Positions 879 through 59,648 of a stretch of DNA of 64,000 bases are shown here, piece by piece (within the stretch, counting starts at the first letter, position 1; every line of letters begins with the position of its first letter). The notes under the pieces are model-generated. The model had not been told where the DNA came from, did no database searches, and saw only the letters and a program-made list of their open reading frames with translations. A program made the translations under genes and the position numbers. Source of the DNA: Myxococcota bacterium (lineage in GTDB: Bacteria; Myxococcota_A; Bradymonadia; UBA4248); contig JAZRWH010000049.1 of assembly GCA_045599585.1 (NCBI GenBank), positions 1,510 to 65,509 of the forward strand, read 5' to 3'.

Positions 879-3800
879 TTAGGTGCGTCTGAGACCTATC
901 CAGCTGCTAAGCGTTTCGTAGACCAAGAGTGAAATTGGCCAATCGATGGGACCACAGCCATCTCCACTCCAATTGATGAAACCAGGAATCTTGACCTGCC
1001 ATGAATCATCTTTGCGGACGAAGACATCTCCCTTAGCCATACCCGCTTTAAGAAGTTTCTTAATAACATCAAGAATCTTGCCACACATCTTAAAGAAAGC
1101 CTTAACGGAGCTCGCGACAAATCCAAGCACCTTAAAGATACCCTTAACAATTTCGCCCTGATTAAAAGCTTCGACAATACCGATAAGAAGATCAAACTCC
1201 TCACCGACAAAATCAATAACAGGCTGAAGAAGATCGGCAACCGGGTAACCTTTTTTCTCGAACTTCTCACGCATAAGGGACATGACTTTATTTTTAATCT
1301 TAGTAAGATCTGCGTCCTTAAGGAACATGTAAATATTATAGACATCAGGAGGCAGAATAAGTTTAAGGAACTCATCCATACCGCCAAACAGAGCCATGAG
1401 GGAATTGAATCCCTTCTTAAGATCAGCAAGCGCCTGCTTAACATCACCGATCAAATTATCGACAAGAACTCGAATCAATACGTAAATAAGAACGCCAGCC
1501 GGTCCGAACGTACAAGCGTTAACAAGCCCGCCTATAAGTTCAGCAAAGAAGCCAAAGGCACTCATCATATTGCCAACATTCTTGATATGCTCGATCTTCT
1601 CAGAGATACCACCCTTACTGTCAGCATTCTCTTGTTTGGCACCGCCGACATCACTACCAAGTGCCTGTGATCCAGGAAGATTGGGACCATCTTTCTTTTC
1701 TTTGCCCTTATCGTCCTTTTTATAATCCTCGCCGACTTCAGCAGTCTTAGATTCATGCGCTTCTTGGGTCTGTTCTTTGTTTGCACCTGGAAGATTGTTA
1801 ACACTTCCTGAATCCTCAAGACGTGTTCCTTGTGCATCAAAGACGACTTTTTTACCCCAGTTGAAACTAAAGACATCGCCAAGATCGAATGTCCACGTGG
1901 TAATCGGATAATTGAAATCTTTACCAAGAAGTACCGCGTACAACTCAGGAATGACGTCGACAGAGAAGCTGCCCGTGAGAGCCACGCCAAGTCCAAGAGA
2001 ACCACCCAAGCCCTCTTCACCGCCATGTAGCTCACCACCAATAGTAACATCTGCTGCGGTCGTGAAATTAGCTGAGCCTTTCAGTTTAAAGCCTGCTTCG
2101 AGCACATTGGCTACACCAACGCCGAGTTTAAGGTATGGTGCGATTGAAGCCTTGAGCTCAAGACCTGACGTACACTGGAGTTCGGTCGAAAAAGCAGGAA
2201 TTCCCTTTCCACTTCGAACATGGTAGTCTTTAACTTTAAGCGTTGCATTAAAGAGAATAGGCTTAATACCAACGTTAAGACCGAGACCGATGCCGCCGCC
2301 AAAGGTAATAGGAACGGGGCCTGCCATGCCTTGTCCAGAGAACCCGAGATCTTTCGTAAAGTTAAAGAGCGAACGCCCTGCCATAAGTTCGACTTGATTG
2401 ACATCCATTTCGCCGTAAACGATCGGATCGTCCCAACCATTTTCAAAGCGAACACCAATCATGCCCTCAAGCCAATCGGTAATCTTAAAGTTGAGCTTAC
2501 CATTGATCTTCGGAGCGCCACCATTCTGCTCGGTATCGTAATCGATGTCGACTTCGCCTCCCAATTTACCTTCGAAAGCTTGAACCGAAAGATGTCCTGC
2601 AAAAGCAAGTTGGTCGTTTGCACCTTTTTGACCTTTAACCCAACGGAATGAATCACAGCCGCCCTCAATGGTGAAACCTTTATTCTGATATTTCATGCCG
2701 ACTTTGCCGGAAATGTCATTCAGATCGTTATCAACAATGCCTACGTGCGCATTGAGACTCGTCAAAGATAATCCAGCACCGAGTTCAAACGGACCTGTCC
2801 CTTCAAGGCTAGCATTGCCGGAGAATTTGCTGATAACACCAGACTCAACATCAATGGAGCCCTTGGCTTCGACACGGATCTCTCCCTTAGATTCGCCTTG
2901 AGCCGTTTTCGGACCTGCAATGATAACAATGAGCGTACCATCCATTTGGGTAATCTTGCTGTTCTTAATTTCAGCCTTGGCAGAAGTACCCATTCCAAGT
3001 CTGAATTTTCCAGCAGGATCAATGGCCAGATCACGTTTAAGTTCAACCTGACCACTAGCGGTAAGATCTGATTCTGTGTCCTCACCACCTGGCGTATAAT
3101 CACCTTCTACAGAACCTCTAAAGAGTTCTTCTTTGTCCTTTTCGATCTTAAAGGCAAAGTTCCCGTGCAGGGCTGTAATATTATTTTCTTCGATATCACA
3201 CTTAAACCCACTCGATTTACATACGACAAACTGGTAACCCGATGAAGTCGGTTTGCCAATGGCTTTTTCACGCGTAACAGCGACTGTAACAGTACCATTG
3301 ATCTTATCAGGATCAATACAGTCAAAATCACCTGCCGTCTTAAACTCAAGATAACCGCCGTCTTCATCCTGCATTTCAAGCGTCACTTGGCCACGAACAC
3401 CAGTCAAGGTACTGTTATCGATCTCCAAAGTTGCCTCTGACGGTTTCAGCCACAATGATTCTGTGCTGGAAATGTTAAACAACTTTTTCTCTTCAATCGA
3501 CACCGACCCCGATGCATGAATGAGATTGTTATTTTCGACATCATATGCGAACTCAACATCCCCGTGGACCTTCAGCAGACCCATTTCGTCCTCACCTGTC
3601 TGCGTAAGGTAGAGACCGGCTGCCCCCGTAAGATAGGTGACTTTACCTTCTGAGATCGTTGTTTCGACGCTTGCGGCAGGACCTTCTGCTGTACCTAGCC
3701 CATACTCAAAAGATTTATCATTATAGGTAAAATCTCCAAGTTTCGTTTTGGAGGCACATTTCAGAGTGACAACACCATTGAAGCTATTCTCGCGCGTATA

Positions 3801-6800
3801 AGCGAGCGATTCGCTTGCCAATTCTAATGTCAACAGTTCATCTGAAGAGGGTAGTTTTACATCCAAATCCAATGCACCACTGAAATCAGATGAGACAAGA
3901 CCCTCTGAATCAAACTGTGCAGTTGCTGTACAATCTCTCGTCTGGACTGTAAGTGCATCCGACAGATTAGCTGTCAATTCGACTTTCGCCGTAATTTCAA
4001 GAGAATTAATCTCACCTGTTTCAACGTTCAGATCGACTGATGCTGAACCGTCTTCTATATTAAGTTTTGCTGCATTTGTCGTGCCTTCAAGTGCCGCAGA
4101 TGCATTAAAAAATGCATCGCCATGGAATCTCACCAACTTTGAGTCGGCGACTTCTGCATCAAGAGACGTACCTTTCTCTAACAGTGTAAATTCAGCAGTT
4201 GCGCCCCCTTCACCTGCCACAAATTTAATATCGCCTATCGGCGTCAGCTTAACGGTTCCATCAAACGAAGGCTTATCTCCCAACGTGCACGTTAGATTTT
4301 CACCCTTTAAGCTGGCTCCAAATCCCTCAGGCAAATATTTGTTTTCTGCCTCTTTATAAATGTAATCAAGCTGGAACGCACCGGATACGCTGCTAATGCC
4401 TTCGTTGCTAAAGACAATGCCAAATCTTGACCCCTCTTTAAGCGTAATGGAATCAACGCCTTCAATCGCATCAAGTACACAATCACCTACGGTCTCAATG
4501 TCAGCATCACCCGAAACAACGTATTCCTCGCCTTCACGCGCTACACTCACGCCCGCACTGCCTTTGAAGACGATAGGCGTCGTCGTTTTGAGAATGCTTG
4601 TCTTTCCCTCGTAGTCGCCCCTGACGTCAAAACTCTGAAGCTCATCATCTTTGATGACGACATCAAGACCGCCACCATCCAACACGGTGACTTTTGTCTC
4701 ACCGTTGTGCGCATTCATTTCGACATCACCATCTAAATGCGCTGAAATATTGCCAGATACAGCAAGCGTATCAACATCAATCGATGCGTCCTGCATCTTG
4801 AGATCGAATACAGCTTTTTTCTGAGTGAACTTGTCATTCGCAATCGTAAGCTTAGCAACACAATCCAAGTCCATTCCCGTGACTTTGTTTGCTTCTATTT
4901 CAAGATTTAAGCCACACTGGCGTTTACCCTGAAGTACGAGAGAATCTCCACCTTTGTCTTTATAAAGATCATAGTTCTCTGTGAGCTTCGCCATCACTTT
5001 GCCAGTAAACTCACCTTTATCACAATCAAAGTTCTTAATATCCGCTGTAATATAACCCTTAAGATTGTCATTCTTAAGTTTGATATCAGTGATTGCTGTG
5101 ATCGTGCCTTTTACAGTCGTCGGTTGGGAATTAACAAATGTAATATATAATTCGTTGCCTGCCCCATAATACGATTGAGGAAGCGTTACGCCAATCTTTT
5201 CACTGCCAAGCGCTAGATCACTGTCAATAACACCACTGACAACGCCGTCAAACGATCCCGTACTCAAATCATACTTTCCACCCTTCACGTTGCCGCTAAA
5301 CGAAAAGGCGTTTTCCGCTCCACCAGAACCCTTTTTCGAATCTGCATCAGCGCCATATTTAAAATCACCCGAAAACTCAAGCGGGGCAATCTCGTTGTCT
5401 ACGATGGCTACATGCGCTTGGGCTCCAGTTAAAATTTTGAATTTGCTATTAGCATCCGGTATGGCAAGATCATTCGATAAAACGATATCACATGTCGCAT
5501 TTAAAGACTCTGAATCGACCGTCATGTCGAGCGTCGAAGTCGCAATCTCCGATTCGTCGTTCTGGAGAACTTTGACAATACCGTCACATTTAATCACACC
5601 TGCTGCATAATGAATGCTTATGCCAGGGTCTTCGCTCCTAAGATTCTTGTGATCCACCTTTATGGATCCATCAAATTGCGTCAAAATATTGTCTGTTGCG
5701 CTATCAAATCGTGCATTGCACTCCGTCAAGGTGGCACATCCCATGGCAAACGGTTGACCTAAGCTCAATTCACCACTGACACCACCTTGCGCATCAATAT
5801 CCAATGCATCCACGTTCAAACTGACCGTTTGTTGCGCAGCACTCAAATGCACATTGCCTGTAATACTCGCTTTTTCAAACGCCCCTTCGGTAATATCAAC
5901 CGTTCCAGTCAAACTACCTGACAATATCGGAGAAACTTTTTTGCCTTCACCACCAGATTTCTGCTCGCCGCCTGCTTTCGTGCCGGGAATCGAAAAGTTA
6001 TCTGCACTCACCGTTAACGTAGCATTCTCAAGCTTATTCTTCGTGAAGCTGACATCGCCTTCTGCTTTCACAGCATCCCAAAGCGACGCCTCAACGTGAC
6101 CCGAGGCCGCAAACTGGTTCTCTACTGTATACGAAGCTTCATTGATCGTAAGCTGGAGCGTTGCCCCTGTTCCTGGAACCGTATAAGGTTTCAGTGAAAC
6201 ACTGCTCATCTCAGCTTCAAAAGCATCCCCTGTGTGCGATACCTTAAACGTCACCTCGGAAGACGGATCTGTGACAAAATTCAACCCTTTTGCCGTTAAC
6301 GTGCCCGTTGCACTCGTGATCTCTCCATCAAGCGCACTCAGTGTAACTGTACCGCTCAAGCCTATGCCAGAACCGCTCATCGCTCCGTCAGAAGCCATAC
6401 CACTTTGCGCAGCTCCACCGCCAGGACGCTTCGTATTTCCCTTTGCCGTCAAAGTCGTATCAATTTGTGTGCTCTCACCTATCGACACCGAACCATTCGC
6501 ACTGACATCGACAGTATCGAAAATACGCGCCGTCGTCGCGATCTGCCCCTTCAATACCGTTGACGCGCCATCCTGCGTCATGTTGAATCCAACTTTGAGA
6601 TCGTCAATGCCAGGAATCTCTAGCGATGTGCTAAATCCACCCAATGGCTTAAACTGCCCAGTTCCTTTCGGATCTTTCAGCGTGAGCGTGACATTCGTGT
6701 CCTTAAGCAAATCCGTCGACAGCGACGCTCTCAGATTAATCTCTGAAAGCTTAGAATTCGTCACCGTCGCGCTTCCAGTGATGTTCTTCAAAAACGGAAT

Positions 6801-7277
6801 ATTCCACTTGTCACACTCAATCGTGTGCTTCCCGTTTTCACTGCTGTATTTCACTTTCGTTTTCACGCCGAAAAGTGTCAGCTCTTTCTCTAAACTGCCA
6901 CCCTCTGCCACAGAACTTCCTGCCGCAATGCCTCCATTCGCACTCGCACGGCCAGACGATGATTTTTTGTGAAGCGAGTTGCGGTTCGCTTGAGCTAGCT
7001 CTCGTTCGGCTTCTACTTGCGCCTGACGTGCATTTTCTTGGACAGTCGTATGAAGACGACGCACTTTCGATCCGCCCAAAACGCCCGTCAACTGCTTCAT
7101 CACACGCGCATATACATACGGACGCTCCTGATACAGTGCAGAAAGATCCGCCGCAATGTTCGTCGAACGCTTCAAAGACTCCAACAACGCTCGATTCGAA
7201 TCCTCTTTAACGAAACCGCTGTCCTGCTTGCCTAGTTTTCCTTCTAGCCCATGACGCTCAAGTTCAAATTCTGACAT
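879..7277 (-). CDS. giant orphan protein, 2,132 aa, beta-rich, no signal peptide, C-terminal hydrophobic hairpin
   Basis: Uninterrupted 6.4-kb ORF. SD-like GGAGAAG lies upstream of ATG 7277. All overlapping ORFs are short shadow frames. No family recognised by eye. Confidence 0.9.
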   Translation of the reverse strand: MSEFELERHGLEGKLGKQDSGFVKEDSNRALLESLKRSTNIAADLSALYQERPYVYARVMKQLTGVLGGSKVRRLHTTVQENARQAQVEAERELAQANRNSLHKKSSSGRASANGGIAAGSSVAEGGSLEKELTLFGVKTKVKYSSENGKHTIECDKWNIPFLKNITGSATVTNSKLSEINLRASLSTDLLKDTNVTLTLKDPKGTGQFKPLGGFSTSLEIPGIDDLKVGFNMTQDGASTVLKGQIATTARIFDTVDVSANGSVSIGESTQIDTTLTAKGNTKRPGGGAAQSGMASDGAMSGSGIGLSGTVTLSALDGEITSATGTLTAKGLNFVTDPSSEVTFKVSHTGDAFEAEMSSVSLKPYTVPGTGATLQLTINEASYTVENQFAASGHVEASLWDAVKAEGDVSFTKNKLENATLTVSADNFSIPGTKAGGEQKSGGEGKKVSPILSGSLTGTVDITEGAFEKASITGNVHLSAAQQTVSLNVDALDIDAQGGVSGELSLGQPFAMGCATLTECNARFDSATDNILTQFDGSIKVDHKNLRSEDPGISIHYAAGVIKCDGIVKVLQNDESEIATSTLDMTVDSESLNATCDIVLSNDLAIPDANSKFKILTGAQAHVAIVDNEIAPLEFSGDFKYGADADSKKGSGGAENAFSFSGNVKGGKYDLSTGSFDGVVSGVIDSDLALGSEKIGVTLPQSYYGAGNELYITFVNSQPTTVKGTITAITDIKLKNDNLKGYITADIKNFDCDKGEFTGKVMAKLTENYDLYKDKGGDSLVLQGKRQCGLNLEIEANKVTGMDLDCVAKLTIANDKFTQKKAVFDLKMQDASIDVDTLAVSGNISAHLDGDVEMNAHNGETKVTVLDGGGLDVVIKDDELQSFDVRGDYEGKTSILKTTTPIVFKGSAGVSVAREGEEYVVSGDADIETVGDCVLDAIEGVDSITLKEGSRFGIVFSNEGISSVSGAFQLDYIYKEAENKYLPEGFGASLKGENLTCTLGDKPSFDGTVKLTPIGDIKFVAGEGGATAEFTLLEKGTSLDAEVADSKLVRFHGDAFFNASAALEGTTNAAKLNIEDGSASVDLNVETGEINSLEITAKVELTANLSDALTVQTRDCTATAQFDSEGLVSSDFSGALDLDVKLPSSDELLTLELASESLAYTRENSFNGVVTLKCASKTKLGDFTYNDKSFEYGLGTAEGPAASVETTISEGKVTYLTGAAGLYLTQTGEDEMGLLKVHGDVEFAYDVENNNLIHASGSVSIEEKKLFNISSTESLWLKPSEATLEIDNSTLTGVRGQVTLEMQDEDGGYLEFKTAGDFDCIDPDKINGTVTVAVTREKAIGKPTSSGYQFVVCKSSGFKCDIEENNITALHGNFAFKIEKDKEELFRGSVEGDYTPGGEDTESDLTASGQVELKRDLAIDPAGKFRLGMGTSAKAEIKNSKITQMDGTLIVIIAGPKTAQGESKGEIRVEAKGSIDVESGVISKFSGNASLEGTGPFELGAGLSLTSLNAHVGIVDNDLNDISGKVGMKYQNKGFTIEGGCDSFRWVKGQKGANDQLAFAGHLSVQAFEGKLGGEVDIDYDTEQNGGAPKINGKLNFKITDWLEGMIGVRFENGWDDPIVYGEMDVNQVELMAGRSLFNFTKDLGFSGQGMAGPVPITFGGGIGLGLNVGIKPILFNATLKVKDYHVRSGKGIPAFSTELQCTSGLELKASIAPYLKLGVGVANVLEAGFKLKGSANFTTAADVTIGGELHGGEEGLGGSLGLGVALTGSFSVDVIPELYAVLLGKDFNYPITTWTFDLGDVFSFNWGKKVVFDAQGTRLEDSGSVNNLPGANKEQTQEAHESKTAEVGEDYKKDDKGKEKKDGPNLPGSQALGSDVGGAKQENADSKGGISEKIEHIKNVGNMMSAFGFFAELIGGLVNACTFGPAGVLIYVLIRVLVDNLIGDVKQALADLKKGFNSLMALFGGMDEFLKLILPPDVYNIYMFLKDADLTKIKNKVMSLMREKFEKKGYPVADLLQPVIDFVGEEFDLLIGIVEAFNQGEIVKGIFKVLGFVASSVKAFFKMCGKILDVIKKLLKAGMAKGDVFVRKDDSWQVKIPGFINWSGDGCGPIDWPISLLVYETLSSWIGLRRT

Positions 7278-49647: not shown

Positions 49648-49717
49648 ATTTTTTTAATTCCATAACGAACCATTAAACGAATGAAATAGTACTTCAATGA
49701 CTAAACGAGGTTCAAGC

Positions 49718-52700
49718 ATGAAAAAAAATTATTGGCTCTGCGCTTTTTTGGCCGCAACATTGTGCCAATCAGCATGTAGCGATGATTCAAGTTCTTCACA
49801 CGAAACAGCGTTTTGTGGAAATGGCGTCGTTGAACAGAATGAAACTTGCGACGACCATAACACAACAGACGGTGATGGTTGTTCTGCCGTATGTCGAACA
49901 GAACCTCACTACAATTGTCCTCCCCTCGGCGGAAGTTGTACGATAATCCCCGGTCTTCCCCCAGATAATATCGACGATCCCAATCACACCGATATTCCAG
50001 ATCCCCCCACGAATACCTGTGGTAATGCTCAACTTGACAATGACGAAGCATGTGACGACGGCAACACTAAAAATGGCGATGGCTGTTCCAGCAAGTGCGA
50101 AATTGAAGCTGGTTTCGAGTGCTCTGAGCCGGGTAAAGCTTGTCAAAAATTACCTGAATGCGGAAATGGTATCCTTGAATCAGGCGAAGAATGTGATGAC
50201 CACAACACGGATTCCGAAGACGGATGCTCCCAAAACTGCCAGATTGAAGACGACTATCGTTGTCCAATCGAAGGAGAAGCTTGTGCACGCATAGAATGCG
50301 GGGATGGTGAGCTTCAGGAAGAAAACGGAGAAGTTTGCGACGACGGTGAGTATAACGTCGACTACGCTCCAAGCGATGGTTTTTGCGGCCAAAACTGCAA
50401 GCCAGCCCATTACTGTGGTGATGGCTTATGGGATGAAATCGACAAGCTTAACGGGGAAGAATGCGATGACGGTGGCGATACATCAACGCTGTATAACGGC
50501 TGTTCCACCGCTTGCAAGCGCGTCAATTACTGCGGTGATGGTTCAATTTCTCATGATGAACAATGTGACGACGGAAATTTAATCGATGGCGATGGGTGCT
50601 CAAGTACCTGCCTCTATGAAGCTGGTTTTTCCTGTATTCAAACCAATGGTAAAACAGAATGCAAACCCATCCCATGTGGAAACGCCATACTTAATGAAAA
50701 TGAAGCTTGCGATGACGGCAACCGCATTTCCGGCGACGGCTGCAGCGCAGCCTGCCTCATCGAATCTGGTTTTTTATGCGAACAAAATGAAGATGGGCTG
50801 TCTGTCTGCAAGTCTACAATCGGAAACGGTATTTTGGACACAGATGCCGGTGAAGATTGTGACGATGGAAACACACTCGACGGCGATGGGTGCTCTTCAA
50901 AGGGCGGCATAGAACCAGGTTGGATCTGCATAACCCCCGGGAAACCCTGTATGGCACGCGCCTGTGGTGACGGTATAAAGGCACTCGGTGAAGAATGTGA
51001 TGACGGAAATACACTCGACGGCGATGGATGCTCATACCGATGCAAAATCGAAAAAGGTTTCAGCTGTCCTGCAGCAAATCAACCCTGCATTGCAGGCACA
51101 TGCGGTGACGGCAAGATTCAAAAAGGCGAAGAGTGTGATGATGGAAATACAGACAGTGATGACGGCTGTTCAGCTAATTGCACAATCGAACCCTATTATG
51201 AATGTCAAGTGAATGGCGGAAGCTGTCAAAAAACAGATTGTGGTGACGCTTCGATACAACCAACACCTGGTTATGTCTCTTACGAATCATGCGACCTTGG
51301 AACCCCTAACAACGACGGCACACAAGGCTGCAGCAACGAATGTACAATCATAAAAGGCTGGCACTGCGATTCCAATGGCCAAAATTGTAGCCAAGGCGTT
51401 TGCGGCGACGGAATACTGGATGCGGGTGAAGAGTGTGACGACGGTAACACAACACCTACCGACGGTTGTTCTCCATCCTGTAAACGCGAAACAGGTATCG
51501 AATGCAACAATGGCATTTGCAAACCTATATGCGGCGACGGCGTTACCATGTGGATGCTCGCCCCGTCCATTGCAGAAGAGTGCGATGATGGAAATCTTAT
51601 CTCTGGCGACGGTTGCTCCGCTGATTGCAAAATCGAACCAGGTTTTACGTGTACCGATTTCAAAGCAGCAGAACTTCCCCCTGTTATCTCGCTCCCCATC
51701 ACTTACCGAGACTTCAAAGGCCGAGATGAATCCGGAACTGCTGATGGAACAAATGGGCTAGGCACCAAAGACTTTGTCGATGCCGTTATCGCCGACGATC
51801 CAGAATGCGCACGTTTCTCCGAAGACGGTAAAACATGCCACCCAGGCTTTTATCCTAATTACGGACATCCTGATTTTAACAGCAACCTCGGACTAGGACT
51901 CGCCAGCTACACGGGCAGTGGCTGGAAAGCCGGTGACAAAGGCGAACTCGTTGAACTTGATCTCAGTGCTGAAGAAAAACCCGTTCTCAAAACAACTGGA
52001 AAAAAACAGTGCGTAGGCGGGTACGGTTATAGACAAGTCACATGTAATGCTTCATTTAATATGTGGTATCGTGATGTCCCCATGTACAATAAAACGTATC
52101 AGCACAAACTCAATTTGTGGATCACGGATCCCAAAACAGGCACCTATTACTTTACAAGTGATAAACCCAACTCTAATGGCGCCGTTAACACTTGTGTTGA
52201 TGGAACAACAAAATTAACCAACGGTATGTTCTCGCCTTTGAGCAATGCTGGATTCGGAAATACCCCAAAACAATCTGGAAATAACTTCGGTTTTACGTCT
52301 GAAATTAAAACTTATTTCCAGTATAAAGGTGGCGAAAAATTAACCTTTACGGGGGATGATGACGTTTGGGTATTTATTAATAATCACCTTTTTGTTGATC
52401 TCGGCGGTATGCACGGCGGAATCGGGACAGCTAATAATACGCTCAAAGCCGAAAAATTCGTATCAGGCAAAGATCAAAATGGTCAGGATATCATCATTAA
52501 TTATGACCCTGAGTTTGATGTTTATGAAGGTGGTATCTACCCCATTCACCTCTTCCAAGCCGAAAGAAGTCCTTCTGGTTCAAACTTCAGCCTTACACTT
52601 TCGGGATTTGTTAATACTGGTACAGCAGCATGCTCAACACCTTGTGGCGATGGTATCGTTCGCGGCGGCGAAGAATGTGACTACGTCGGAATTAACACGA

Positions 52701-53380
52701 ATGTTGCACTTCAACACGAAAAAGGCTGTTCCGCTGACTGTAAACTTTCTCCTTACTGCGGTAATGGCAAAATAGAATCTGGCGAACAATGCGACGAAGG
52801 TGAAAATGGCTCTGATTGGTGTTCTGCCAAAACATGCAAACTTAATCCCGATACGTGCGGAAACGGCAAACTCGACGAACATGAACAGTGTGATTACGCT
52901 ATTACGGATAAATCCTCCCCCGATTATCGTGATGGCTGCCTGAACACCTGCCGCATTTCAGGCTGTGGCGACGGCATCGTAGATAGTGCTGCCGGAGAAG
53001 AGTGTGATGACGCCAACGATTCTAACGAAGATAGCTGCACAACAAGTTGCAAACGTCCAACTTGCGGCGATGGTATCGTTCAGAGCTTCTTAGGCGAAAT
53101 TTGTGACGATGGCATCAACGACGGCGGATATGGTCACTGCGGCCTTGGATGTGCGTATCTTCCCCCCTTCTGTGGTGATGGCATCGTATCATCTGCTAAT
53201 GAAGCCTGTGACGATGGTAAAAATGACGGTTCCTACGGAGGATGTATGCCAGGATGCCAACAGCGAGCCCCTTATTGTGGTGACGGTATCGTCCAGGACG
53301 CCTTCGGAGAAGAATGCGACCCTGCTGACACGACTTCTTCAGTCAGCTGCTCGCTCGATTGCTCACTTGCTATTTTATAA
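49718..53380 (+). CDS. 1,220-aa lipoprotein: two blocks of Myxococcus-type cysteine-rich repeats (DUF4215) flanking a fibro-slime/PA14-like domain
   Basis: GAGG SD and lipobox CQSAC. Over 15 units of CGNG..E.GE.CDDGN...GDGCS..C..E. Central ITYRDFKG...GHPDFN...FTGDDDVWVFINNHLFVDLGGMH (about nt 51674-52622). Confidence 0.9.
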   Translation: MKKNYWLCAFLAATLCQSACSDDSSSSHETAFCGNGVVEQNETCDDHNTTDGDGCSAVCRTEPHYNCPPLGGSCTIIPGLPPDNIDDPNHTDIPDPPTNTCGNAQLDNDEACDDGNTKNGDGCSSKCEIEAGFECSEPGKACQKLPECGNGILESGEECDDHNTDSEDGCSQNCQIEDDYRCPIEGEACARIECGDGELQEENGEVCDDGEYNVDYAPSDGFCGQNCKPAHYCGDGLWDEIDKLNGEECDDGGDTSTLYNGCSTACKRVNYCGDGSISHDEQCDDGNLIDGDGCSSTCLYEAGFSCIQTNGKTECKPIPCGNAILNENEACDDGNRISGDGCSAACLIESGFLCEQNEDGLSVCKSTIGNGILDTDAGEDCDDGNTLDGDGCSSKGGIEPGWICITPGKPCMARACGDGIKALGEECDDGNTLDGDGCSYRCKIEKGFSCPAANQPCIAGTCGDGKIQKGEECDDGNTDSDDGCSANCTIEPYYECQVNGGSCQKTDCGDASIQPTPGYVSYESCDLGTPNNDGTQGCSNECTIIKGWHCDSNGQNCSQGVCGDGILDAGEECDDGNTTPTDGCSPSCKRETGIECNNGICKPICGDGVTMWMLAPSIAEECDDGNLISGDGCSADCKIEPGFTCTDFKAAELPPVISLPITYRDFKGRDESGTADGTNGLGTKDFVDAVIADDPECARFSEDGKTCHPGFYPNYGHPDFNSNLGLGLASYTGSGWKAGDKGELVELDLSAEEKPVLKTTGKKQCVGGYGYRQVTCNASFNMWYRDVPMYNKTYQHKLNLWITDPKTGTYYFTSDKPNSNGAVNTCVDGTTKLTNGMFSPLSNAGFGNTPKQSGNNFGFTSEIKTYFQYKGGEKLTFTGDDDVWVFINNHLFVDLGGMHGGIGTANNTLKAEKFVSGKDQNGQDIIINYDPEFDVYEGGIYPIHLFQAERSPSGSNFSLTLSGFVNTGTAACSTPCGDGIVRGGEECDYVGINTNVALQHEKGCSADCKLSPYCGNGKIESGEQCDEGENGSDWCSAKTCKLNPDTCGNGKLDEHEQCDYAITDKSSPDYRDGCLNTCRISGCGDGIVDSAAGEECDDANDSNEDSCTTSCKRPTCGDGIVQSFLGEICDDGINDGGYGHCGLGCAYLPPFCGDGIVSSANEACDDGKNDGSYGGCMPGCQQRAPYCGDGIVQDAFGEECDPADTTSSVSCSLDCSLAIL

Positions 53381-53757: not shown

Positions 53758-54303
53758 CTATCGAAATGAAGATGGCGGCCCGTACACAGCCTTAGGAACG
53801 GGCATTCGATTTTGCATCTTTTTCATTTCTTCAAGTTCTTTATTTGTTATAGAACCAGACTTAGACTTAGTCGTTCTTTTTTTCTTTGAATCCTTCGGTG
53901 CTGGCTTTGCTTCTTCCGGCGTTGGCTTTAGATCTTCTGACGCCGGGACATCTGCATCCGGCAAAACACCATCAACCGAAGGCTTTTCCATCTCTGCCTC
54001 TGGCGTCTTGTTTGAATCATTCTCAATTGCATCCTCCCTTTCAAACGGAGGCGGACCATATATATCTAAGGGCTCTTGATCAATATCTTTGGGAACTTGA
54101 TCCTTATACTGGTCATAAAAAGGACCACTCTTGGAGCCTTCATCCGTCTTACCAGTTTCTTCAGCTGGATCACTAATTGGCGTAGGCTCTGCTGGTGGCG
54201 GACCATACATATTACCACTCGATCCAATTCTGTCACAGCCTGCTGCATAGAGAGACGTTATCGCACCTGCAATAATACTAATGAATTTCTTAATCATCTT
54301 CAT
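53758..54303 (-). CDS. acidic, proline-rich lipoprotein with three (M/I/V)YGPP motifs
   Basis: AGGAGA-N6-ATG at 54303. Lipobox YAAGC. NMYGPPP, DIYGPPP and AVYGPPS motifs. Confidence 0.8.
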   Translation of the reverse strand: MKMIKKFISIIAGAITSLYAAGCDRIGSSGNMYGPPPAEPTPISDPAEETGKTDEGSKSGPFYDQYKDQVPKDIDQEPLDIYGPPPFEREDAIENDSNKTPEAEMEKPSVDGVLPDADVPASEDLKPTPEEAKPAPKDSKKKRTTKSKSGSITNKELEEMKKMQNRMPVPKAVYGPPSSFR

Positions 54304-54541
54304 ATCCACTCTCCTGATTATTTCAAAAAAAGCATCTTAAATGCTTTTTTATACAATACTATAAACTATTATTTACGCAACTATTTTTCTATATAGATTC
54401 CAAAGTTCTAACAACAAAGCGATCCACCTGTCCACAAACAGTAAATACGCTCTTCAAACTTAAATCTTTGTTAAATACACTTTTAAAAGCATAGCGCATG
54501 CAGGGCAAACACGATTTATCTCAAAATATATTGTTTTAAAT

Positions 54542-54741: not shown

Positions 54742-55731
54742 ATGCGCCTTTCCCCTTTCATTTGTTCGATCTATCTCGCCATTTCAACAGTCATGCTTCC
54801 CACCTCGGTCTCCGCGCAAGACGATGCTTCTACGCTTTGTCTCAAAGCCAAACAAGCTAAGGACAGCAACAACAGCGCTTTGACGTGTGATTTTGCACAA
54901 AAAGCGATTGATCTCGAAGGCGAATCCGCTTGCGGTGGCTCTGCCGTCCATTGGACATCGCTCTATTGCCGCAAAGCCCCTAAACCTGAGCACACGTTCG
55001 AATATGAATATGAATCGGATAATAATTCCAAAGGAAGATCCAAAGTACCTGCGCATAATCGCCCAATTCCTCAAGGCCCATTCAAAATTACGATCGATCC
55101 AAATCATTACAGCGAAATGGCTGAAGAAGATGCGTGTACCATGGCTGTCAAAGCAAAAATCCGTAAAGACTATGCCCAAGCATGTGAGTACGGACAGGTC
55201 GCTTATCTAAAAAGTGGCGATAAAGCGTGCCATGGTAAGGCTGTGTTTTATATCGATGATTATTGTAATAAAAACTATCCCCCCCAATCAACCAAGGAAT
55301 CCGGCCAATCATCAGACACACCGCATGCAGTTCCATCAAGCAGCGGTTTAAGCCTTGACGATATCTGTTCGCTCGTCGTCAAAGCAAAAATGAACAAAGA
55401 CTACGAAAAAACCTACGAATACAGCAAAAAAGCTGTTGAACTGGGCGGTACAAATGCATGCAACGGGAAGGCTACCGAGCAAATTCACAACGATTGCCAA
55501 GACAAAACGATTCCAAAACAGGTTAAACAACCTCAACCCAAACCGGAGCCAGCTCAACCTGTTGCCAATCAAGGCATGAGTACGGATGATCTTTGTTCTC
55601 TGGCTGTCAAAGCAAAAATACAAAAAAACACTGAAAAAGCCTGCGAATTCTACCAAAAAGCACTCAAAAAAGGTGGAAAACATGTATGCAAAGACAGCGC
55701 AGCAACTTATGTTTCAAGTTTTTGTAATTAA
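54742..55731 (+). CDS. secreted protein with four ~50-aa four-Cys modules
   Basis: GAGGAAG SD. Signal peptide ...PTSVSAQ. Repeated D.LC.LAVKAK..K....CE....A...GG..C.G.A......C units separated by linkers. Confidence 0.8.
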   Translation: MRLSPFICSIYLAISTVMLPTSVSAQDDASTLCLKAKQAKDSNNSALTCDFAQKAIDLEGESACGGSAVHWTSLYCRKAPKPEHTFEYEYESDNNSKGRSKVPAHNRPIPQGPFKITIDPNHYSEMAEEDACTMAVKAKIRKDYAQACEYGQVAYLKSGDKACHGKAVFYIDDYCNKNYPPQSTKESGQSSDTPHAVPSSSGLSLDDICSLVVKAKMNKDYEKTYEYSKKAVELGGTNACNGKATEQIHNDCQDKTIPKQVKQPQPKPEPAQPVANQGMSTDDLCSLAVKAKIQKNTEKACEFYQKALKKGGKHVCKDSAATYVSSFCN

Positions 55732-55911: not shown

Positions 55912-56280
55912 TCAATCCTGAGAATCGTCCCCCACGGGCTGATCGTTCAACTCAGGCGGCATACCATAGAGAGCCATAATATGCTGATCAGCATCCACGG
56001 GATTCTCTTTAAGAATATCAGCCTCTTGGTTGTCTTGTACAGGCTGATCGTTCAACTCAGGCGGCATGCCGTAGATTGCCACGGGATAATCATCGTTTTC
56101 AGGCAAGTTTTCTTTAAGAATAGCGCCATCTGTATTGTCAGAGGGCGAAGCGTTATCCTTCGTGACATGGTCTGTCTCTTCGACATTTGAAGACTTAACG
56201 TTATTTTTTGAACAGCCAGAAACGATAAGCGCAACAGCAACGCCTGCGGCAATGCCAATGAATGATAAGATTTTCTTCAT
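55912..56280 (-). CDS. small acidic lipoprotein with two YGMPPELNDQPV repeats
   Basis: Lipobox VSGC. Near-identical ~40-nt DNA repeats around 55937-55975 and 56041-56080 encode (A/I)(L/I)YGMPPELNDQPV. Confidence 0.8.
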   Translation of the reverse strand: MKKILSFIGIAAGVAVALIVSGCSKNNVKSSNVEETDHVTKDNASPSDNTDGAILKENLPENDDYPVAIYGMPPELNDQPVQDNQEADILKENPVDADQHIMALYGMPPELNDQPVGDDSQD

Positions 56281-56635: not shown

Positions 56636-56663
56636 AAAAAAAAGGCCGCCCCGAAGAGCAGCC
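56636..56663 (-). terminator. intrinsic terminator after the 56692..58623 gene
   Basis: Minus strand reads GGCTGC-TCTTCGGG-GCGGCC followed by T8. Confidence 0.7.
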
Positions 56664-56691
56664 TTATAGGATTATGAAATGAAGATATGGA

Positions 56692-58623
56692 TTAAAATTC
56701 CAAACCAAGACCTATTTGGAACGTTGCATTTTCGGTAAGGTCGAAAGCACCGCCTGCATAGAAATTGTTAATATTGGCATACATATATTCGGCAAAGAGG
56801 TATGAGTTATTAACGCCCCATTCGACATCAAAAGCCTTAGCCATACTTGGAGAGATCCAGTCGAGGACAAAAGCGAGTCCTGCAACGGCATGGAAGCCAA
56901 AAGTGCCACCGTAACCTTTTTTGCCACCGGCCGAGGGGATATCACCGGAAGCATTTTCGACGAACCAAATATAATAATCAAAGCCACCTTTTACATAAAT
57001 CGTAAGAGGGACATTGAATCGCTGCCAAAGGTAGTCGAAGCGGTAAACGAGCGAGAGGCGGAAAGGGAGCCAATGAATGGAAGTTTCATCGACAGTGGTA
57101 TTACCGTCGTTATCGATCGCCTTACCGGTAATATTGCCGTAGCCGAAATGAAAGCCCAAGCCCAGTGAGCCGACGCCGCGCCAAAACTGCCAATCGTATT
57201 CGCCTTCGAGGAGGAAGCCAGAATTATCGGAGAAGTGTTTTTTAAAAGCGCTTCCGAGTTTATCAGGCGTATAGGGACCAGCTTTTAATTCGACCATCAT
57301 ATTGACGGGCGATTCGTCGTCCGAATCGAGCGCGAAGGCATCGGAGGGGGCAGTCACACAGAGTGCAGAAGCGAGCAGTACAGCGGCGGCGGTAGATTTA
57401 GAGGCCAACGCTATTTTTTTTTGTCTTTTTCTGCGAATGAGCATGGCGATGCCGAAGCAGAAGAGGAGGAAGATGCCCGCGAGGACAACTGGAGCGTTAA
57501 GCGCAAGATAAGCCATGCCATAGACAGGCCAGAGGAGCGTACGCGTAATGGCGCGGGCCGTCGGGTGTTGTCCGATGAAGTGCGCGAGTGGCGGACTTAA
57601 GCGATAATAGGTATCGACGAATGCGCGGCCAGGGGCATTCGTAAGGAGGATATTGTCGCGGAACTTGCGCAGGAGCGCGACGTGGGGTTCTTGTGTTGAT
57701 CCCCAAGCAGCGGTTGCAATGAAGCAGAAACCACCATCAACGTCTGCATTCTCAGCCCGATACGTTTCCCAGAAATCGTTACTTGAGAGTGTCGTGACGT
57801 CAACGACAGGCCCCATAAGACTTTCGTTGCCCACAGAATCGACAGCTGTAATACCGATTTTGTAGTCAGTTTCTTCGTCAATATGGTCTTTGAGGGTCGC
57901 ACTTGTTTTAGAGATGCTCATGGTATCAGCATTGACATCTTCTGGCGCCTGACCTTGAGCCATCGCAACAGAGGTATCGGAAGTATAATAGATATTATAC
58001 GAAGCAGCGCTATCCACAGCATCCCAAGAAAGTTCGATAGAGCTTCCGCCAGGTTCGGCCGAAAGTGAGCTCGGAGCAGCCGGACGTTTTGTACGGAAAT
58101 CGAGGACATACGTCACATTATAAATATTCTCGGAGAGAGCCGACGAATCATTGACGATCAGATAGATGTAGGATGTCTCAGCCAAGTTCTCGCACATATC
58201 AGCCGAAGTCGCGGAACTGAGCTTAGAGGCCTTTAGTTTTACCGTAATCGGGCCTGTAGAAGCGCTCAAGGGCTGATTATTTACAATATTTTCGCATTCT
58301 TCAGACGAATCGCGCTCTAATTTTTTATTTGAACAAGCTTGAGATCCATTTGCGAATTTCACAGAAAATTTAGCTGATGAAGAGAGCTTGTTCGTCTTAT
58401 CGAGCGTATAGACAAAACTCACTTCTCCCGTGGAGATATCGAAGAGATCTTCACATCGTCTGACGTTAAAAACGAGCGTTTTGTCAGCATCATAAGCTGA
58501 AGTATTCAACGAACTCGTGAGCGACCAATCAGACTCGCTTGTATTAGCCTGAGCAGCTGTGGGGAGCCCAAGCCCGAGAATAAGGGCGGCCATAGCGCCC
58601 ATTCTGGAGAACATAAACTTCAT
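56692..58623 (-). CDS. chimeric surface protein: signal peptide, beta-rich region, FN3, CFIATAA-box with TM and basic anchor, joined in frame to a second signal peptide and an OM beta-barrel module
   Basis: ATG 58623 overlaps the asd stop (TAATG). [28 protein letters not shown]3-like [50 protein letters not shown] box, TM helix, RRKRQKK. Then [25 protein letters not shown] and a module ending FQIGLGLEF. An A9 run sits at the junction (57414-57422). Confidence 0.8.
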
Positions 58624-59648
58624 TAATCCATCCTTGCATGGTTCCAAGCCGCGCAGGCAATCTGCACAGCGTTTAGCGCAGCACCTTTTAACAGGTTATC
58701 GCTCACAACCCAAAAGATTAGACCTTGCTCGACCGGATCTTTTCGAATTCGACCGACGAGCGTCTGAAACAAGCCTTCCGCCTGTACACTGGTGGGATAA
58801 GCTGACGGATCTGCGATATCCGTGACGCAAAGGCCATCCATTTGATTCAATATTGTTTGCGCCTCTGCGACAGAAATATCTTTTTGCGTTGAGACATGAA
58901 CGACTTCACTATGGCTTCTCATCACGGGAACGCGCACACACGTTGCGCTCACAGGAAGATCGGGTCTGCCTAGTATTTTTTTTGTCTCATTCATCATTTT
59001 GTGTTCTTCTTCAGTGAAACCATCTTCTGTAAGCGGTCCAATCTGAGGAACAACATCAAAAGCGATTGTACGAGCATGAACTGCTGATTTTTCTGGACGT
59101 TTGCCGTCGAGTGTCTGACGCGTTTCATTCAACAACGCATCCATGCCTTTTTGTCCTGCACCACTACATGACTGATAAGTCGCCACGCGGACAGAACGAA
59201 TGCCTACGGCCCTATCCAAAGCAGCCAGCGCCAACACCATCTGAATGGTTGAACAGTTTGGATTGGCGATGATCCGCGGACTCAAATCGATCAGCTCTCC
59301 GTTGACTTCGGGAACGACCAACGCTTTGTCGGCATCCATGCGATAAGCCGAAGTATTATCGATGACGAGCGCCCCTGCCTCTACGGCTTTTGGTGCCAAC
59401 GCAAGAGACACTGATTTTCCTGCACTGAACAAAGCAATGTCTACGCCCTCAAAGCTGTACAATGCGGCATCCTGAACAGTTTTTGCCCCCCACGGCGTGT
59501 CGATCAATTTACCGGCCGAACGACTTGAAGCAACCAAATCAAGTTCGCCAACCGGAAATTTCAGCGCATCAAGGCAATGTATCATCTCGCGACCTACGGC
59601 ACCCGTTGCACCGACGACTGCGACATGAGCTTTCTCAGACTTCTTCAT
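58623..59648 (-). CDS. asd: aspartate-semialdehyde dehydrogenase
   Basis: [17 protein letters not shown](P) site. Active-site NPNCSTIQM. 341 aa. Confidence 0.93.

Follow-up and report, generated by a model that had tools for sequence, protein, structure and literature searches.

The closest described counterparts of the gene reported here come from Myxococcus xanthus. SgmI (MXAN_2561) is an FN3 protein with a C-terminal sorting tag that has been implicated in type IV pilus (T4P)-dependent motility, and MXAN_2562, encoded just downstream, is a predicted outer-membrane (OM) barrel; the gene is apparently co-transcribed with sgmI, and insertions in the two genes give similar fitness profiles (bioRxiv 10.64898/2026.08.28.747804). 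A second protein, MXAN_5598, combines an adhesin, an internal MYXO-CTERM tag, an OM barrel and an OmpA domain. It has been read as a probable fusion of two coupled genes, in the manner of TraA/TraB with overlapping open reading frames (ORFs), and its N-terminal part is proposed to be processed and anchored at the surface; MYXO-CTERM motifs at internal positions are described in the same paper as rare (Guo, Haft and Wall 2025, PMC11980579). Here we analysed a 64,000-nt stretch of DNA from a Myxococcota bacterium (contig JAZRWH010000049.1; hereafter the window), in which one ORF on the minus strand encodes a tagged surface protein that continues directly into an MXAN_2562-family barrel. We consider it likely that this long ORF is a genuine, selected and conserved fusion of a surface adhesin with its cognate OM barrel by way of an internal signal peptide.

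The ORF occupies 56692..58647 on the minus strand and is 651 aa long from the ORF-track start in the ORF listing of the window. The true start is the ATG at 58623, giving 643 aa, as indicated by the overlap with asd and by the starts of homologues at the equivalent position. This ATG overlaps the asd stop codon as TAATG (window 58621-58625, minus strand), and the database copy (P0001) is likewise of 643 aa. Residues are numbered from the ATG at 58623; the numbers in a preliminary description of the stretch, made from the sequence alone, are 8 higher. The gene and its modules are as follows:

56692..58623, minus strand: the whole fused gene, 643 codons and a TAA stop (ORF, start overlap and homologues)

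58546..58623, minus strand: N-terminal Sec signal peptide, aa 1-26, with an AQA/N site (sequence, aligned signal peptides of homologues, and helix 5-18 in the AlphaFold2 (AF2) model)

58093..58527, minus strand: first β-sandwich, aa 33-177, with conserved Cys residues (AF2 predicted local distance difference test (pLDDT) of about 90, 40-42 bits to MXAN_2561_fam, Foldseek)

57793..58065, minus strand: FN3 domain, aa 187-277 (Pfam fn3 E = 1.8e-5, AF2, Foldseek)

57523..57726, minus strand: CFI-box-CTERM domain, aa 300-367 (NF041770, motif position and alignment)

57436..57492, minus strand: stop-transfer transmembrane (TM) helix of the sorting tag, aa 378-396 (AF2 helix 379-403, sequence, conserved hydrophobic block)

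57415..57435, minus strand: basic cluster RRKRQKK, aa 397-403 (sequence and homologue alignment)

57414..57422, minus strand: A9 homopolymer in the codons CAA AAA AAA ATA, present only in the window among the joints read

57331..57414, minus strand: h- and c-regions of the internal signal peptide, aa 404-431 (conserved Ala pattern; same position as the signal peptides of split relatives)

56695..57330, minus strand: MXAN_2562-family 8-stranded OM β-barrel, aa 432-643, ending GLGLEF (NF040596, AF2, Foldseek)

Both halves of the protein matched defined NCBIfam families. The tag scored 98 bits against NF041770 (CFI_box_CTERM; cut-off 40) and carries the CFIATAA motif, the TM helix and the basic cluster of that domain. 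Among 70 ordinary CFI-box proteins, 98-126 residues separate the motif from the C-terminus; in the window protein the distance is 344 residues, and a domain defined by its extreme C-terminal location is here internal. The last third matched NF040596 (MXAN_2562_fam) at 186-189 bits (cut-off 100) over positions 2-208 of the 208-position profile, and has both the β-barrel fold and the C-terminal aromatic β-signal of the family, its final Phe being at least 90% conserved in the homologue alignment. The N-terminal region reached 40-42 bits with NF045522 (MXAN_2561_fam), below the equivalog cut-off of 150; the protein is thus a homologue of MXAN_2561 (SgmI) but not an equivalog, and aa 33-177, on this weak hit, form its SgmI-like (MXAN_2561-family-like) N-terminal region. 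MYXO-CTERM gave zero matches to the window protein in the NCBIfam scan, and the OmpA domain was absent from it in the Pfam and NCBIfam scans. These results bear out the anatomy given in the preliminary description, which had read two complete proteins in one ORF: an N-terminal signal peptide, an FN3-like module, a CFI-box anchor of a kind normally found at the C-terminus with its TM helix and RRKRQKK, a second signal-peptide-like segment with an A-x-A site (AFA, as read in the sequence) and an OM barrel ending in Phe.

The same description noted that the joint contains an A9 run (T9 on the plus strand, 57414-57422), and this too was read as claimed. The junction codons are CGC AGA AAA AGA CAA AAA AAA ATA GCG TTG; with A8, a TAG falls directly after RRKRQKK, and an in-frame TTG is found at 57408-57406. 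It offered three explanations, namely a sequencing error, a phase-variable switch and a true polyprotein. Under the first, a homopolymer error of sequencing or assembly would have merged a CFI-box protein ending RRKRQKK* with a coupled barrel gene starting from the TTG at 57408, the true tract being A8. The precise placement of the A8 stop at the end of the basic tail, with the TTG 2 nt beyond it, speaks for such an error, as does the existence of split relatives whose stop and start codons overlap. A search of 5.8 billion proteins, drawing on independent ENA, NCBI, JGI and Logan assemblies, argues strongly the other way: all of the closest homologues (about 45, of 625-685 aa, with 31-70% identity and about 100% coverage of the ORF) are fused in frame, and their joints differ in sequence and length. 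The joint residues of the window are matched in frame by ATKTTAAALLIAA and ATKSTTAAILLAA in fused orthologues, and the TTG lacks a Shine-Dalgarno sequence, whereas every split relative has one.

Among the 35 aligned homologues the frame is continuous through the joint in all except P0040, which equals P0008 up to the early barrel and then runs into unrelated sequence (alignment A1, columns 620-800). P0040 is a frameshifted copy of P0008 in a public assembly and shows that such artefacts of this gene occur elsewhere, a point in favour of the error explanation. The ORF was continuous in every syntenic orthologous locus examined. This comparison of orthologues, which the preliminary description had proposed for tract length and gene split, gave the result that the description itself had set as refuting both the error and the phase-variable options. 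It contradicts the sequencing-error option, and we regard an error at the window joint as highly improbable. For annotation, ORFs of this kind are not to be 'repaired' as frameshifts, and their products should be named as bipartite precursors.

Fusion is also common in the wider barrel family. A HMMER search with the barrel alone against 1.84 billion cluster representatives returned 1,286 relatives at E <= 1e-3, and we classified the best 150 of these, the representatives being defined at 50% identity. Sixty-eight are fused, with the barrel at the C-terminal end of a long protein, and 62 are stand-alone barrels that carry an N-terminal leader and measure about 230-260 aa; the rest comprise 12 fragments and 8 intermediate cases. 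In the best 150 of 1,286, then, fusions are about as common as split forms (68/62), as against the word 'rare' in PMC11980579, where the internal tag of MXAN_5598 was already known. With about half of these representatives fused, a polyprotein of this kind is less unusual than the preliminary description supposed. The tags of the 68 fused proteins include 17 CFI-boxes and at least 30 MYXO-CTERM-like tags (GG-C, TM, RRRR), and the latter lead directly into an internal signal peptide. Six fused proteins of the MYXO type matched MXAN_2561_fam to the end of the profile and then MXAN_2562_fam from 2 to 208; three of the six matched the MYXO-CTERM model, two of them at or above its cut-off of 20 (P0143, 26 bits; P0136, 20.5 bits).

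Fused and split loci interleave on a rough neighbour-joining tree of barrel domains, implying that genes fused or split on a minimum of two or three separate occasions. A different passenger, made of a β-helix and fn3, is fused in the same manner in P0050-P0052 and in L009 (a Geomonas metagenome-assembled genome (MAG)). In P0050-P0052, L008, L009 and L077 (a Nitrospirota MAG), a CFI-box and a distant MXAN_2562-like barrel follow other passengers, either the β-helix with fn3 or unrelated N-terminal regions; these arrangements occur fused or split and lie outside the Myxococcota. The tag-plus-barrel module seems to be portable.

Across 35-45 homologues the linkers of the joint vary in sequence and in length, through in-frame indels, while the overall pattern stays constant. 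A TM helix is followed by a cluster of 3-12 Arg/Lys residues (net charge +3 to +12), a hydrophobic core of about 12-15 residues, often a Pro, and an A-x-A. The lengths of the hydrophobic core (h-region) were taken from the printed sequences; an automated parse was discarded, as D/E in the c-region truncated the core. The A-x-A stands 0-5 residues before the conserved ESPVNMM at the start of the barrel, and in 35 sequences the Ala at -1 is invariant and the Ala at -3 at least 90% conserved. The window joint, RRKRQKK ... AFA/L, has the positive n-region, the hydrophobic h-region and the small residues at -3 and -1 of a Sec signal peptide cut by signal peptidase I, with predicted cleavage after A431 (57331/57330). 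From this pattern RRKRQKK would appear to serve twice, ending the sorting tag as its cytoplasmic tail and opening the internal signal peptide as its n-region, so that the Arg/Lys-rich tail of a C-terminal tag would be reused by the signal peptide that follows it.

Six loci that encode the two parts as separate genes (L001, L007, L011, L043, L065 and L077) provided a direct comparison. The stop codon of the first gene overlaps the start codon of the second in five of them (TAATG, GTGA, ATGA, TGATG, TTGA), and in L001 a GTG start lies 2 nt after a TAA stop. All six have a Shine-Dalgarno sequence, GGAGG in four, with GGAG and AGGTG in the other two; in several, AGG/CGG Arg codons of the basic tail of the tag make up this sequence (GGAGG or GGAGGAGG) for the barrel gene. 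The split barrel genes open with an ordinary N-terminal signal peptide whose A-x-A/ESP stands at the same position as in the fused joint. Given the stop/start overlap, a change of 1 nt is enough to fuse the genes, and the overlap of translationally coupled genes thus offers an easy evolutionary path to an in-frame fusion.

The barrel of the fused loci could instead be translated separately from an internal start, the continuity of the frame being incidental. The window does have an in-frame TTG and some orthologues an ATG or GTG at the joint, although such codons are inconsistent among fused loci; the joints of L082 and L003 are entirely free of in-frame ATG, GTG and TTG, so that their barrel can come only from the long precursor. 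In the eight fused loci checked for starts and Shine-Dalgarno sequences (L006, L008 and L009 fall outside this set), none has a Shine-Dalgarno-backed start for an intact signal peptide, compared with six of six split loci that have the sequence; the sole match of this kind, a weak GGTG in L002, precedes starts that fall within the c-region. The frame is, moreover, kept across linkers of variable length in about 45 homologues. Separate translation of the barrel is very unlikely on this evidence. The polyprotein, the third option of the preliminary description, is instead the reading to which the conserved n- and h-regions, the A-x-A and the lack of a Shine-Dalgarno sequence or conserved start all point.

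We modelled the protein with AlphaFold2 from 35 homologues (mean pLDDT 83) and the barrel separately. The full-length model places, in order, the signal-peptide helix, two β-sandwiches, a helical CFI-box region, a long TM helix, the joint and an 8-stranded barrel; joint residues 403-440 are disordered, with a pLDDT below 50. Modelled alone, the barrel again has 8 strands (pLDDT 84). Foldseek searches with the full-length model returned only tandem FN3 structures, corresponding to the N-terminal half, and those with the barrel model returned OmpA, OmpX, NspA, Ail and OmpW with a probability of 1.0 and target-normalised TM-scores of 0.57-0.67. Porin D, from a PDB search with the barrel profile, was a marginal match (E of about 2e-3 over a 50-residue stretch) and was set aside as uninformative.

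The protein bears a superficial likeness to a type V autotransporter, whose C-terminal barrel exports the N-terminal passenger: it starts with a signal peptide, has an adhesin in the place of a passenger and closes with a barrel whose last residue is Phe. That identity was rejected, and we give it next to no weight. With its 8 strands and its likeness to OmpA and OmpX, the barrel does not fit the 12 or 16 strands of a translocator. Between it and the passenger come the stop-transfer TM helix, the basic cluster on the cytoplasmic side and the second signal peptide, and in many relatives the two parts are separate genes.

A more serious alternative is that the second hydrophobic segment stays uncleaved as a TM helix, leaving a one-piece inner-membrane hairpin with both ends in the periplasm. 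The cleavage is a prediction, and the AF2 model, with its pLDDT below 50 at the joint, is uninformative on the point. Several features nevertheless make the hairpin unlikely. Only 0-5 residues lie between the A-x-A and the first barrel strand in most homologues; in the window the distance from the cleavage site to ESPVNMM is 5 residues, from which it follows that a tethered barrel could not reach the OM and that cleavage would be needed. Positions -1 and -3 carry small residues with little or no variation, the segment takes the place that cleaved-type N-terminal leaders occupy in stand-alone barrels, and the barrel keeps its C-terminal Phe β-signal.

A candidate second TM helix within the tag, at aa 354-376, was judged amphipathic and interfacial and was rejected as a membrane span. 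We took it as interfacial because two TM helices in the tag would leave the basic cluster on the periplasmic side and the barrel in the cytoplasm, and because in split relatives a short helix and a loop are followed by only one long TM helix.

These data allow us to propose a mechanism, and most likely the gene encodes a Sec-dependent polyprotein. The architecture and its conservation, the loss of the Shine-Dalgarno sequence and start codon, and the fold are results of the analysis; the topology, both cleavages and the functional pairing of the two products we infer from anatomy and conservation. The first signal peptide would target the precursor to Sec and be cut at AQA/N, after which the two β-sandwich domains and the CFI-box would be translocated. 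The TM helix of the tag would then stop transfer, leaving RRKRQKK in the cytoplasm, where it would act as the n-region of the second signal peptide; this would re-enter Sec in an N-in/C-out orientation and restart translocation. Signal peptidase I would cut after AFA (A431), freeing the barrel (...GLGLEF) into the periplasm for insertion by the β-barrel assembly machinery (BAM). A TM-loop-TM hairpin would keep the adhesin anchored until a putative sorting enzyme processes the CFI-box tag at or near Cys300, a step proposed by analogy with myxosortase, which cleaves MYXO-CTERM at its Cys (PMC11980579). Fusion of the two genes in this way would provide 1:1 synthesis and co-localised export of the adhesin and the barrel.

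Alignment of the two tag types bears on the last of these steps. Cys300 (57724-57726) aligns with the invariant MYXO-CTERM Cys of fused homologues (alignment A3), and the window and the MYXO-type fusions share a DFWExYR...GG motif that precedes the aligned Cys. In the same alignment the CFI-box is a helical insertion of about 75 residues between this Cys and the TM helix. This suggests that CFI-box and MYXO-CTERM tags may be functionally equivalent, and alignment with the Cys of the experimentally studied MYXO-CTERM offers a testable handle on CFI-box function.

Several points weigh against the polyprotein mechanism as drawn here. The CFI-box is uncharacterised and its processing is proposed by analogy only; to our knowledge no enzyme is known for it, and a Pfam scan of the right-hand 25 kb (window 39-64 kb) revealed no sorting enzyme. 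The predicted cleavage at A431 rests on sequence rules only. Should the amphipathic helix at aa 354-376 be a second TM helix, it could invert the topology, though in violation of the positive-inside rule. Finally, the length of the A9 tract stands on the window's own assembly, no same-species contig having been found.

The A9 tract also bears on the second option of the preliminary description, a phase-variable switch. Runs of nine or more A are prone to RNA-polymerase slippage, and the tract could be a strain-specific contingency or transcriptional-slippage site that stochastically turns the polyprotein into an adhesin-only product. It is the sole homopolymer of at least 9 nt in the 64 kb, it coincides exactly with the joint, and the -1 and +1 frames (A8 and A10) both stop within 0-6 codons of the basic tail. 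Set against this, the tract is neither retained nor length-varying among orthologues, as a phase-variable locus would require: in 11 fused loci (9 distinct genes) the homopolymers of the 216-nt joint reach maximum lengths of 4-6 nt, and A9 occurs only in the window. No Shine-Dalgarno sequence or start is available to rescue barrel synthesis, and no same-species contigs that could show length polymorphism were found among JGI metagenome contigs searched with two flank patterns allowing A7-A11. Lys is encoded by AAA in 618 of 899 cases (69%) in the window, and since the run encodes Q-K-K-I of the basic cluster, a preference of this kind makes it unremarkable.

We conclude that A9 is an incidental lysine-codon run at the joint, neither a sequencing error nor a conserved switch, and the phase-variable option finds no support as a conserved mechanism. 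A strain-specific contingency or slippage site is improbable. Much the same doubt attaches to the idea that in the window lineage the run acts as a transcriptional or replicative slippage site tuning the adhesin-to-barrel ratio, which could work because the -1 and +1 products end so close (within 0-6 codons) to the canonical CFI-box C-terminus; we think this improbable too, if a shade less so. If true, slippage would place a stochastic one-/two-product switch on top of widespread Sec-dependent envelope polyproteins cut by signal peptidase I and a sorting enzyme.

The fused gene sits in a conserved setting. The order Zn-ribbon/GYF protein, 197-aa protein, asd and fused gene is kept in the three closest relatives, and the TAATG overlap between asd and the fused gene, within a conserved neighbourhood that includes the protein of about 200 aa, was observed in the window and in L082-L086. 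The conserved neighbourhood and the overlap imply that the housekeeping gene asd is translationally coupled to the adhesin gene. Beyond the stop codon one further element was recognised in the sequence:

56642..56665, minus strand: terminator-like hairpin with a T-run, 27 nt past the stop codon

This hairpin ends the asd-adhesin-barrel transcription unit. Elsewhere in the window, two small predicted lipoproteins (53758-54309 and 55912-56280, both on the minus strand; signal peptide and Cys) are acidic and of low complexity, with repeated (I/V)YG(P/M)PP(E/A) motifs, and neither matches Pfam. Between them, at 54742-55731 on the plus strand, a 329-aa secreted protein, also without a Pfam match, has four repeats of about 75 aa with conserved Cys (LC.KAK...C......A...GG..AC.G.A). 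A 1227-aa predicted lipoprotein at 49697-53380 (plus strand), with nine Cys-rich DUF4215 repeats and a PA14 domain, is typical of Myxococcota-like surface proteins. At 879-7277 on the minus strand there is a 2132-aa ORF without an obvious signal peptide.

A literature search for CFI-box, MXAN_2561 and MXAN_2562 gave one preprint; no paper dealing with the CFI-box or with this fusion emerged, nor anything relevant on bacterial polyproteins with internal signal peptides. The architecture is nonetheless natural and common, if barely described in the literature. Precedents for the type of processing proposed come from proteins unrelated to the window gene. In viral envelope polyproteins, signal peptidase cuts a single precursor at an internal signal peptide located after a TM segment, and FbcH of Bradyrhizobium japonicum, a cytochrome b-c1 polyprotein, is reportedly cut by signal peptidase in the same arrangement. 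Unlike these, the window gene encodes a product destined for the OM.

With the small 8-stranded OM barrels (the OmpA N-domain, OmpX, NspA, Ail and OmpW) the window barrel shares its predicted fold, although sequence similarity was not detected, and unlike it none of them is known to be produced as the C-terminal portion of an adhesin with a tag. Ordinary CFI-box-CTERM proteins (NF041770) share with the window protein the CFIATAA(Y/W)GS motif, the helical region, the TM helix and the basic cluster; there the domain ends the protein, whereas in the window 344 aa follow the motif. The SgmI/MXAN_2562 pair has the same layout as the window gene, an FN3 surface protein with a Cys-containing C-terminal tag and then an MXAN_2562-family barrel. 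Both NCBIfam families match the window protein in the same order, and the DFWExYR...GG(x)C motif is common to the two systems. They differ in that SgmI and MXAN_2562 are encoded by two translationally coupled genes with a MYXO-CTERM tag, while the window has one ORF with a CFI-box-CTERM and about 75 extra residues from the Cys to the TM helix, and in that the N-terminal region of the window protein scores only 40-42 bits against the SgmI equivalog cut-off of 150.

MXAN_5598 resembles the window protein in that a single ORF encodes an adhesin, an internal tripartite tag containing a Cys and, C-terminally, an OM barrel; the window protein belongs to different families, carries a CFI-box tag and has no OmpA domain. 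In the searched passages of PMC11980579 no internal signal peptide is mentioned, a feature that is explicit and conserved in the window family. The window gene is a further instance of a tag-barrel fusion, new in its CFI-box tag, in its family pair and in its explicit, conserved internal signal peptide. One polypeptide with two Sec signal peptides could in this way supply both an adhesin and its OM partner, a recurring natural design.

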